Both the position numbers and the translations under genes were made by a program. A model generated the notes under the pieces. The model did no database searches. It was not told where the DNA came from and saw only the letters and a program-made list of their open reading frames with translations. A DNA stretch of 48,769 bases from a virus (lineage: Duplodnaviria; Heunggongvirae; Uroviricota; Caudoviricetes): IMG/VR virus record IMGVR_UViG_2880412407_000007, one strand, 5' to 3'. Below are positions 25,720 to 27,488 of this stretch, piece after piece. How positions within the stretch are numbered: the first letter of the stretch is position 1; each line of letters starts with the position of its first letter.

Positions 25720-26289
25720 TCAATCCGCCTTTGTTATTTTCCCTTTGCCTGTATCAGCCAGGACAAAATCAATCAGCATATTCGCTTCATTTACCAGCGT
25801 ACGGATTTTTGATACATGCGCGGCTTTAACCTGTTTCCACTCATTCAGCCCGGTAGCAAACACACTGGCAATGTTTTTATCCCGTTTCATGTCAGCACAA
25901 GCCTGGTTGAGTTCTTCCATCACGCTCATTTTACGGGGATTAACGACAAAACCCTTCGTCCAGTACTCGTAAAGAACATCGTCGCACTCTTCCTGATACC
26001 GGATGACCTTATCGCGGATTTCGGGTTTTACTTTGTTGGGATTAATGGTTTGTAGCCAGCCGGCAAGTTTTCGAAGTGGCATGGACACCATATTGCGTTG
26101 TTTCCCATCCTCAGCAACCATAACGATTTCCGTTATAGTTGACGCAAAACGCTGTCTTAACTTAGCCAACTGTGATTGCCAGGCCAGCCCCATCCCCGCA
26201 ACGACAGGTTTCATGGGAACGTATGGTTCGCCATTATGGTTAACTACATAAAGAGAGTTGCCGTGAAACGGCACGGCCATCATATTCAT
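25720..26289 (-). CDS. phage antirepressor-like protein (AntA/Ant N-terminal-domain type), inserted between endolysin and spanins
   Basis: 189 aa; family assignment from memory only, low certainty. Confidence 0.45.
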   Translation of the reverse strand: MNMMAVPFHGNSLYVVNHNGEPYVPMKPVVAGMGLAWQSQLAKLRQRFASTITEIVMVAEDGKQRNMVSMPLRKLAGWLQTINPNKVKPEIRDKVIRYQEECDDVLYEYWTKGFVVNPRKMSVMEELNQACADMKRDKNIASVFATGLNEWKQVKAAHVSKIRTLVNEANMLIDFVLADTGKGKITKAD

Positions 26290-26559
26290 CGGTTATTTCC
26301 TTTTAGTGATGAACCTTGTCTCACAGGAATCCAGCCCACAGAAAGGCACCGACAGCCAAACCGGTATCCTCAAGGGTCATCCTGAAAGGTTCTGTGTTGT
26401 GAGATGCGCGTGAGATGCGCAGAAATGACAAAGGCATCATTACGGTGCCTGAGTGTTAAACAACTGTTTTGACTTTATTCACTTACATTTTGCCAATTTG
26501 CAGGATTTCGTGTTATCCATCCATGTAAGCAAACCTCATTTTTCAGCAAAATATTCTGC

Positions 26560-27093
26560 TTACCTGTCGATTCCCCAGCACGCCAGCGCGCTCTCCTGGT
26601 CACGACGGGATACCTGACCGTAACAGTTATTTGAGCGAATACGGCAGTCCCTGCCACCGTCCTTAATCCACCAGCGAATAGCTTCGCAGGCACCTTTTCG
26701 ATCTCCTGCATTAATCCGTCTGTAAAACGTCGACGGGAAACACTTACCGGGGCCAATGTTGTACGGACAGAATGACGCAATCCCCGCTTTCTGGGGTTCG
26801 GTCAGTGGCACTCTGATGTTTTTCTCCACCCATGCCAGCGCCTTATCACGCTCAATGGCGTTAACCCGGTCGCATTTTTCCTTCGACAGCTTCATGCCAG
26901 GAATAACAGGCTTACCATCCACCCGGGTGGCTCCACGGCAGATGGTCCAGATACCCGCACCATCACGGTATGCTGTGGTGTGGTTACCTTCCTTTTCATC
27001 CAGAAACTGGTCGAGGATTTCAGGCGCAGGCGCACCTGCGGCAATCAGCGCCAGAACGGCAGCCGACAGGCCGTATCTGATTTTTGCGTTCAT
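26560..27093 (-). CDS. R: SAR endolysin R (phage 21-type lysozyme, GH24)
   Basis: 177 aa; N-terminal signal-anchor-release segment (GLSAAVLALIAAGAPAP) then lysozyme motifs (EGNHTTAYRDGAGIWTICRGAT). Confidence 0.85.
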   Translation of the reverse strand: MNAKIRYGLSAAVLALIAAGAPAPEILDQFLDEKEGNHTTAYRDGAGIWTICRGATRVDGKPVIPGMKLSKEKCDRVNAIERDKALAWVEKNIRVPLTEPQKAGIASFCPYNIGPGKCFPSTFYRRINAGDRKGACEAIRWWIKDGGRDCRIRSNNCYGQVSRRDQESALACWGIDR

Positions 27094-27143
27094 GGATATT
27101 TATCAGGGTTTATCGATTTCAAATCCCTGGATATGTTAAGTCT

Positions 27144-27488
27144 TCAGGCCAGCGGTGGAGTCTTCAGAGAACCCGTAATTATTCCCGGTAGTTTTCCTCT
27201 GTAGGTTATCAACACATCCTGCGCCTCTAAAATTACGGGACGCTTTTCCGGTAACGGACCATCCCCTTCACATAACCCGGCAGCAACATCCATGAAAAAC
27301 TGCTTCGCCTGCTTTTTCGCCTCAGCTTCGTAAAACTCCAGCGTGGCACCTTCAGTACGGTCAAGACTAATCGCCACATGTGGCAACAACAACGACGGAT
27401 GCCCGCCAATTTCAAGTGCCACAGTAACAGCAATCTTATCCGGGTAATTATTTATCTCTTTAACAACCAGTTCGTATTTTTTCTTCAT
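27144..27488 (-). CDS. hypothetical protein (114 aa) between holin and endolysin
   Basis: ORF packed tightly between S and R; no recognisable motif. Confidence 0.4.
   Translation of the reverse strand: MKKKYELVVKEINNYPDKIAVTVALEIGGHPSLLLPHVAISLDRTEGATLEFYEAEAKKQAKQFFMDVAAGLCEGDGPLPEKRPVILEAQDVLITYRGKLPGIITGSLKTPPLA

Follow-up and report, generated by a model that had tools for sequence, protein, structure and literature searches.

Why does the lysis cassette of a tailed phage accommodate genes that lack the features of lysis proteins, and are these genes expressed together with the lysis genes around them? The question is raised by a 48,769-nucleotide (nt) stretch of viral DNA from the class Caudoviricetes (IMG/VR record IMGVR_UViG_2880412407_000007), which is referred to in its full length as the window. 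The cassette is encoded on the minus strand in the order pinholin, 114-amino-acid (aa) protein, signal-anchor-release (SAR) endolysin, 189-aa protein, 48-aa open reading frame (ORF), and Rz/Rz1 (Table 1). The original prediction, made from the sequence alone, described the 114-aa and 189-aa genes as non-lysis genes that are tightly packed in the late transcript and would be expressed at lysis. Both ORFs are present on the minus strand as given, and the identities of the neighbouring S21-type pinholin, SAR endolysin, and Rz/Rz1 are borne out by Pfam and PHROG matches. The interruption by two genes is real but ordinary, and both proteins belong to named families. The tight packing applies to the 114-aa gene, which begins 4 nt after the holin stop codon and ends 50 nt before the endolysin gene R, and fails for the 189-aa gene, which follows a 270-nt spacer. 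The expectation that the latter gene is expressed at lysis does not hold up, as it is preceded by a terminator-like hairpin and a leader RNA that pairs part of its Shine-Dalgarno sequence. Translation of the 189-aa gene is probably gated separately from that of the lysis genes.

The gaps upstream of the 189-aa homologues in other genera are 170–270 nt long and align from the terminator hairpin to the AUG, and the sequences 5' of the hairpin are unrelated between genera. The hairpin thus forms a sharp mosaic boundary at the 5' end of a conserved module, named here Rha-type after the phage P22 gene discussed below. The approximately 135 nt between the hairpin and the coding sequence constitute a structured RNA, the rha-type leader. 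Minimum-free-energy folds of the individual sequences have one architecture in all 21 leaders from nine genera. It begins with a small hairpin, a linker of about 15 nt, and a helix P1 of about 19 base pairs (bp), the 3' strand of which enters the Shine-Dalgarno sequence. The rest of the fold is formed by an asymmetric 3' internal loop, a helix P2 of 11–12 bp, and an apical region of about 20 nt. Applied directly to the MAFFT alignment of 200 nt of upstream sequence, RNAalifold recovers almost nothing (four pairs) because insertions and deletions misregister the helices; the structure was obtained from the per-sequence folds and a covariance model, R1. When the structure is placed on the plain MAFFT alignment, 77% of the alignment cells are paired, compared with 37–56% when the partners are slid, and the covariation score is 0.374 compared with 0.09–0.18. 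In the R1 alignment the corresponding values are 79.9% compared with 35–55%, and 0.385 compared with 0.08–0.15. In 500 shuffles of the R1 alignment, the observed values for paired cells, for cells with two-sided changes, and for the covariation score were never reached. Helix P2 is paired in 91.6% of cells in this alignment, and eight of its 11 pairs have changed on both sides.

The leader also contains a pseudoknot, in which the six to seven linker nucleotides directly 5' of P1 are complementary to the last six to seven nucleotides of the apical region. The paired strands differ by lineage: CACAGAA/UUCUGUG in Escherichia coli, and CAUGAG/CUCAUG, CACGAG/CUCGUG, CAUCGAG/UUCGAUG, and CACCGAA/UUCGGUG in others. 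Of 26 distinct leader sequences, 25 have a complementarity of at least 6 bp, and the 3' strand occurs in 16 different sequences; in the controls of the same search, such complementarity is seen in 14% of non-self pairings and 11% of shuffled linkers. It is very improbable that the conserved 135-nt region acts at the level of DNA, as a promoter, operator, recombination linker, or site for integration host factor (IHF), instead of being a functional RNA. The region starts at a sharp mosaic boundary, as recombination linkers do. The classical phenotype of Rha also depends on IHF, a DNA-binding protein: in 1995 Henthorn and Friedman reportedly described Rha as the product of a late-region gene that is toxic to phage growth in IHF-deficient hosts. 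However, the helices stay paired through two-sided changes and contain many G-U pairs, which are valid on one strand only, indicating that the functional strand is the mRNA strand, and the pseudoknot covaries. Moreover, the sigma-70 scan does not detect a minus-strand promoter in the cassette, and neither the IHF consensus WATCARNNNNTTR nor its relaxed core occurs on either strand of six leaders.

A scan of 8 kb with Rfam 15 does not contain any match with E ≤ 1 to the leader, nor does it identify sar or another family. The leader tested on its own (26287–26480) yields chance-level matches only, with E > 2 and far below the gathering scores. The leader was not found in Rfam or in the searchable literature, which did not include the 1995 rha paper, and it is probably undescribed.

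The covariance model R1 has 38 matches in 93 sources, all of which are on the coding strand and end at an AUG, and the leader of the window is present in 308 phage records according to blastn. Full-length homologues of the 189-aa protein (approximately 187–190 aa) occur throughout Enterobacterales. In other genera they are also located in lysis cassettes, which are built from unrelated holins, endolysins, and spanins. The leader-preceded homologue is positioned after Rz in Photorhabdus, between the lysozyme and a DUF2570 spanin in Serratia, and between the endolysin and Rz in Proteus. Besides the P22_AR_N domain of the 189-aa protein, the cargo encoded behind the leader includes pRha combined with ORF11CD3, KilA-N, KilA-N combined with ORF11CD3, Bro-N, pRha with a different C-terminus, and a 231-aa ANT/KilAC protein. 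Extra copies of the leader sit in the slot between the endolysin and Rz or just after Rz. Leader copies also precede truncated cargo ORFs of 32, 45, and 86 aa (L085 3318–3450, L024 3368–3503, and L211 4067–4201). In L085, the pseudoknot complementarity has also decayed to 4 bp, as would be expected if the RNA were preserved only as long as it is followed by an intact gene.

The genome of P22 (L250) contains the leader at positions 39507–39646 (83 bits), after gene 15/Rz1 and a canonical terminator. The 3' end of the P22 leader, as placed by R1, coincides with an in-frame ATG (39644) that is preceded by AAGAAGG and lies 23 codons past the RefSeq start of rha. The RefSeq gene spans positions 39575–40180, and its start at 39575 lies inside the structured leader. 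The true start of P22 rha probably lies downstream of the annotated one, and several phage records likewise have a "hypothetical protein" annotated across the leader.

The description of the 189-aa protein as antirepressor-like is justified for its N-terminal domain. P22_AR_N (PF10547) matches aa 5–113 with 154.6 bits, and residues 1–126 are 50% identical to residues 10–136 of P22 Ant. However, neither P22_AR_C, which is located at aa 200–272 of P22 Ant, nor an ANT/KilAC domain was found by Pfam. Their place is taken by ORF11CD3 (PF10549) of P22 Rha, matched marginally at aa 122–164 with 27 bits against a cut-off of 25. Structures of both inserted proteins were predicted with AlphaFold2 (AF2), as had been proposed. 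The ORF11CD3 region of the 189-aa protein is modelled as a single long helix (approximately residues 122–180), and the N-terminal domain matches the DNA-binding folds of KilA-N, Bro-N, and APSES. P22 Rha is composed of pRha (PF09669) and ORF11CD3, the latter with 96.7 bits, whereas a Phage_pRha N-domain was not detected by Pfam in the 189-aa protein. Because the protein lacks pRha but shares ORF11CD3, the location, and the leader, it is called Rha-class and not Rha. We infer that it is a DNA-binding regulator, not a lysis protein or a classical antirepressor.

It is unlikely that the 189-aa protein is instead a true antirepressor that is made late and inactivates CI-type repressors of co-resident lambdoid prophages, resulting in cross-induction. 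The similarity of the N-terminal 126 residues to P22 Ant agrees with such a function, and so do the annotation of the gene as Ant in many phage records and the 9–15 related places in each of the host genomes. Early-region Ant proteins promote induction in the Shiga toxin (Stx) phage Phi24B (PMC3064807). However, the Ant tested in Phi24B is the product of another gene, which precedes qut and shares the C-terminal part of P22 Ant (PMC3064807), and the identification of this "functional antirepressor" with the 189-aa gene was rejected. The 189-aa protein is without the P22_AR_C half of P22 Ant and without ANT/KilAC, and control of the arc/mnt/sar type is absent from its gene. Furthermore, the free exchange of the N-domain for pRha, KilA-N, or Bro-N behind one leader is more in keeping with a generic regulator that binds DNA than with a protein specialised in repressor binding.

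The 114-aa protein, which had been thought to contain no recognisable motif, is a member of the DUF1327/YdfR family. PF07041 matches its residues 1–112 with 145.1 bits against a cut-off of 25 (E=7e-43), and PHROG 406 matches with E=7e-63. The AF2 model has a beta-beta-beta-alpha core formed by aa 1–73 and a low-confidence tail of aa 74–114. The core is 43% identical to that of YdfR from the Qin prophage of E. coli K-12 over residues 1–74. NCBIfam does not contain a family for the 114-aa or the 189-aa protein, and PDB sequence searches with the two proteins returned nothing meaningful. A search of 5.8 billion proteins gave 276 DUF1327 clusters, and all the source-named ones are from Escherichia or Shigella. 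A profile search of 1.84 billion representatives identified only 93 relatives, none of which is an informative fusion and some of which are stand-alone 72–76-aa versions of the core. The family is mosaic: the core exists as two subtypes, the middle segment (EKRPVILEAQ...LKTPP) is conserved, and C-terminal tails, which are optional, account for the forms of 176 and 183 aa.

The YdfR gene is located directly 3' of a PF04971 holin gene in all viral contigs with upstream context but one (L238), in which the holin match is below the threshold; the 176-aa variants likewise follow a PF04971 holin directly. In the window, the last codons of the holin gene supply the Shine-Dalgarno sequence GGGGAG of the 114-aa gene. 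A distant homologue, a stand-alone 76-aa core (L254 1636–1866), is encoded directly after a lambda-I-like tail assembly gene, indicating that the DUF1327 core is not confined to lysis cassettes. The functional data come from a 2026 report on K-12 YdfR only (PMC13232886). K-12 YdfR was isolated in a two-hybrid screen, interacts with residues 1–597 of ribonuclease E (RNase E), and co-purifies Rne 1–598, and its residues 1–72 are enough for the RNase E interaction (PMC13232886). A DNase-resistant nucleic acid, reported as RNA, co-purifies with the protein (PMC13232886). Overexpression of ydfR results in no growth defect and few transcriptome changes, and the deletion of ydfR scored in an envelope-integrity screen, as cited in the same report (PMC13232886).

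The 48-aa ORF, which was overlooked in the original prediction, is the third non-lysis ORF of the cassette. Its start overlaps the stop codon of the 189-aa gene (TGATG), and its stop codon overlaps a GTG start option of Rz (GTGA); it is predicted from these overlaps to be translationally coupled on both sides. According to the gene-order tables, the 48-aa ORF is also present in cassettes that do not contain the 189-aa gene. In other such cassettes it is replaced by unrelated small ORFs with a single transmembrane segment, which directly abut the start of Rz, such as a 32-aa ORF in L200 and a 48-aa ORF in L183.

The presence of the two inserted genes varies among viral contigs. In a set of 49 YdfR-bearing contigs with full context, 11 contain the 189-aa gene; in 17, R and Rz are separated by a gap of about 310 nt, and approximately 20 hold other cargo or the 48-aa ORF alone. 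Among the contigs selected for the 189-aa gene, approximately 27 encode YdfR and 24 do not. The two genes are independent presence/absence modules, and therefore neither is likely to belong to the core lysis machinery. Inspection of the sequences did not identify a transmembrane segment, signal peptide, or lipobox in the 114-aa or the 189-aa protein. The features expected of lysis proteins (membrane or SAR segment, lipobox, obligatory presence) are thus absent from both genes, in agreement with the original prediction.

It is quite unlikely that one or both genes regulate lysis, for example by YdfR tuning the triggering of the pinholin or the release of the SAR endolysin. The invariant position of YdfR 4 nt after S21-type holins, with its apparent translational coupling, the result of the envelope-integrity screen, and the overlap-coupled chain of the 189-aa gene, the 48-aa ORF, and Rz are compatible with lysis regulation. 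However, both genes are dispensable in nature, as there are cassettes that contain both and cassettes that contain either one alone. The lack of membrane and export signals, the absence of a growth defect upon ydfR overexpression (PMC13232886), and the homologue beside a tail gene, outside a lysis cassette, also argue against it.

The arrangement is already known, as the gene order has been present in annotated Stx-phage genomes for about 20 years. A 2.9-kb region of the window is 100% identical to the chromosomes of E. coli O121:H19 and related Shiga toxin-producing strains. Of 5426 complete E. coli genomes, 576 contain at least 80% of this region. A megablast search matched 413 phage records, 40 of which span at least 80% of the query. 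These 40 include BP-4795, YYZ-2008, Stx2-converting phage 86, and many Stx1a and Stx2a phages, which encode the same gene products across the matched region, so the suggested comparison with Stx-phage lysis regions yields an identical gene set. The order in the BP-4795 record is S, ORF47, R, ant, ORF50, Rz. RefSeq names the 114-aa product "YdfR family protein" and the 189-aa product "phage antirepressor N-terminal domain-containing protein". In the Qin prophage of K-12 the order is essQ-ydfR-rrrQ-rzpQ/rzoQ, and the second (189-aa) gene is not in the cassette. A comparative study of 279 Stx phages lists Ant phams without addressing where they are located in the lysis cassette (PMC8136144). The two genes are therefore widely conserved in well-studied phages, but a lysis-related role is known for neither, so that only half of what was to refute the original prediction was found.

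It is probable that the locus is a standard S21-pinholin/SAR-endolysin/Rz-Rz1 operon with two slots that hold independent, optional modules with the following proposed roles. The slot between the holin and the endolysin holds the YdfR/DUF1327 gene, apparently translationally coupled to the pinholin gene, so that the YdfR-family protein would be made together with the holin late in infection. By analogy to K-12 YdfR, the small cytoplasmic 114-aa protein most likely modulates host RNase E or RNA turnover at this stage, and it is unlikely to act on the envelope. The slot between the endolysin and the spanins holds the mobile Rha-type module, composed of the terminator hairpin, the pseudoknotted leader, and a regulator gene with a DNA-binding fold. 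Only late transcription antiterminated by Q should pass the terminator of this slot, and the structure of the leader suggests that it probably limits or conditions translation until a trans-acting factor or a processing event opens the fold. Gating by the terminator and the leader means that the 189-aa protein would not be simply co-expressed with the lysis proteins. The "antirepressor" of Stx phages would then be a Rha-class module under its own RNA-level control, and its co-expression with lysis or toxin release is not to be assumed.

A wider proposal is put forward tentatively. The leader may represent an undescribed class of pseudoknotted cis-regulatory RNAs that gates a guild of regulators by serving all of them as a translational operator, a sensor, or a site of processing. 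Separately, YdfR may be a holin-coupled RNase E modulator. The guild would comprise regulators of the KilA-N, Bro-N, Rha, P22_AR_N, and ANT types, whose genes, P22 rha and the Stx-phage "ant" among them, are interchangeable cargo in the late and lysis regions of temperate phages across Enterobacterales. The trigger of the leader could be processing by RNase III, a host protein, a small ligand, or temperature, and it could explain the 30-year-old Rha/IHF phenotype. The conserved, covarying leader provides a testable handle on how phages restrain this large and functionally obscure KilA-N/Bro-N/Rha guild. The coupling of YdfR to the pinholin, together with the reported RNase E binding, points to a connection, open to testing, between the expression of late phage genes and RNA decay in the host.

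Several observations weigh against the two-slot interpretation. The terminator hairpin preceding the leader is weak in the window and was not picked up there by the consensus terminator scan, whereas it is a canonical intrinsic terminator in most other lineages, with GCCTCGCAGATGCGGGGCGTTTTTGT as the P22 equivalent. In the partition function of the window leader, pairing of the Shine-Dalgarno sequence is limited to its A-G-G, with which P1 ends, and the two bases that follow are unpaired; in the E. coli variant, the Shine-Dalgarno sequence has a mean unpaired probability of about 0.4. Relative to shuffled sequences, the stability of the E. coli leader is unremarkable (z=-1.2, and z=-0.9 for a longer 184-nt stretch), whereas z ranges from -3 to -6.7 in most other lineages. 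The strength of repression is therefore uncertain, and thermodynamics alone would miss the leader in the window. The gene for the antiterminator Q is truncated by IS3-family elements, being annotated as a pseudogene beside two transposase genes of this family (window approximately 31005–33870; L001 12006–14871), and the cassette may thus be silent unless Q is supplied in trans, for example by another prophage. As regards the 114-aa protein, the putative role in RNase E or RNA metabolism is drawn by analogy to K-12 YdfR, and the small number of transcripts altered by overexpression of K-12 ydfR leaves an effect on RNase E unproven. The holin-coupled translation and the invariant position of the gene still allow that YdfR may have a role in lysis timing.

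Upstream of the holin gene, the window encodes a nanS-p-like esterase with DUF1737, SASA, and DUF6645 domains. The 620-aa ORF is intact in the window, although RefSeq marks the gene of the identical O121 genome as a pseudogene interrupted by an internal stop codon. The intrinsic-terminator-like hairpin between the esterase and holin genes would be passed only by antiterminated late transcription. The esterase gene is itself preceded by the small RNA (sRNA) STnc100 (29933–30141, minus strand, 175.6 bits), a match to an AgvB-type anti-GcvB sRNA (29873–29932, plus strand, 56.2 bits against a gathering score of 56), and three tRNA genes (30254–30502, minus strand). There is no stx gene between the tRNA genes and nanS-p, indicating that the window is from a Stx-phage-like prophage without toxin genes. 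On the other side of the cassette, the segment 23600–25000 between Rz and the terminase genes is AT-rich, with a GC content of 0.33–0.40. It contains genes for a PerC-family regulator (24326–24640, minus strand) and a DUF3950/YnfO protein (24020–24244, plus strand), and looks like another slot for accessory genes.

Table 1. Features of the lysis cassette and of the leader RNA, with coordinates in the window.
Feature	Coordinates	Strand	Evidence and remarks
nanS-p-like esterase gene	27858–29720	-	Ahead of the holin gene
Intrinsic-terminator-like hairpin and T-run	27747–27775	-	12-pair stem followed by TTTTTTATTG (consensus scan); between esterase and holin genes
S21-type pinholin (class II holin), 71 aa	27493–27708	-	PF04971 E=1.7e-32; PHROG holin; RefSeq "class II holin family protein"; dual start, M1 (antiholin form) and M4 (holin form)
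YdfR/DUF1327 family protein, soluble, 114 aa	27144–27488	-	PF07041; PHROG 406
SAR endolysin (T4-lysozyme-type), 177 aa	26560–27093	-	PF00959 E=1.5e-24; PHROG endolysin; N-terminal G/A-rich SAR-like segment MNAKIRYGLSAAVLALIAAGAPAP; triad E-X8-D-X5-T
Non-coding spacer, 270 nt	26290–26559	-	Between endolysin and 189-aa genes
Terminator-like hairpin and U-rich tract	26422–26450	-	AGGCAC...GUGCCU-type stem at 26432–26450; alignments of upstream gaps
rha-type leader, structured RNA, ~135 nt	26287–26421	-	Covariance model R1, 101.6 bits, E=9e-22
Leader hairpin P0b	26406–26420	-	
Leader pseudoknot, 5' strand	26390–26396	-	CACAGAA
Leader basal helix P1	26371–26389	-	Paired with 26299–26318
Leader upper helix P2	26361–26369	-	Paired with 26326–26334
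Leader apical region	26337–26360	-	Last 7 nt (UUCUGUG, 26337–26343) form the pseudoknot 3' strand
Leader 3' internal loop	26319–26325	-	
Shine-Dalgarno sequence of 189-aa gene	26298–26302	-	AAGGA; A-G-G inside P1
AUG of 189-aa gene	26287–26289	-	
Rha-class regulator annotated "antirepressor", 189 aa	25720–26289	-	P22_AR_N and ORF11CD3
Hydrophobic small ORF, 48 aa	25574–25720	-	RefSeq WP_000539795; ORF50 of BP-4795; PHROG 4906 E=4e-28
Rz i-spanin	25104–25577	-	PF03245 E=1e-46
Rz1 o-spanin lipoprotein, embedded in Rz	25166–25351	-	PF06085 E=4e-19

The closest counterpart of the 189-aa gene is rha of P22 and phi80, which is likewise located in the late operon at the lysis genes and shares the terminator hairpin, the leader RNA (83 bits in P22), and the ORF11CD3 domain. 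The two differ in the N-terminal domain, which is pRha in P22 Rha and P22_AR_N in the window protein, and in position, as P22 rha follows Rz whereas the window gene lies between the endolysin and Rz. P22 Ant shares the 50% identical P22_AR_N domain with the window protein; however, it has P22_AR_C and is encoded in the immI region under the control of Arc, Mnt, and sar, none of which applies to the window gene. The sar family of Rfam was found only at P22 ant, where model R1 has no match.

A structured RNA just upstream of an antirepressor-like gene, after a terminator, is also a feature of the c4 antisense RNA system of P1 and P7 and of isrK-orf45-anrP in Gifsy-1. The read-through mRNA of Gifsy-1 is transcribed but remains translationally silent until its structure is changed (PMC4825925). 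Control of antirepressor-like genes by RNA is thus a familiar theme, to which P22 sar also belongs, but the leader of the window is unrelated to sar and shares neither sequence nor structure with the c4 and isrK systems. It also differs in that an upstream ORF or a separate sRNA is not evident. The possibility that the leader is the isrK-orf45-anrP element was rejected, as R1 has no match at anrP and AnrP is unrelated to the window protein. The Rfam models of isrK, C4, and c4-a1b1 similarly hit Gifsy-1 and not the window. In Gifsy-1 (L256 34131–34329, minus strand), the C4 antisense RNA and its a1b1 target adjoin and overlap isrK between Q and anrP, and the IsrK locus looks like a c4-type immunity RNA system of P1/P7 relocated behind Q.

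The 114-aa protein resembles YdfR of the K-12 Qin prophage (P76160), which belongs to the same PF07041 family and occupies the same place between an S21-type holin (essQ) and an endolysin (rrrQ). The 43% identical core is the part of K-12 YdfR that was reported to bind the N-terminal half of RNase E. K-12 YdfR is 103 aa long and does not have the EKRPVILEAQ...LKTPP tail, whereas the 114-aa window protein does. Phages encode several modulators of RNase E, including T7 gp0.7, T4 Srd, and phiKZ Dip, and the role proposed for YdfR, by analogy, would likewise be that of a small phage protein contacting RNase E.

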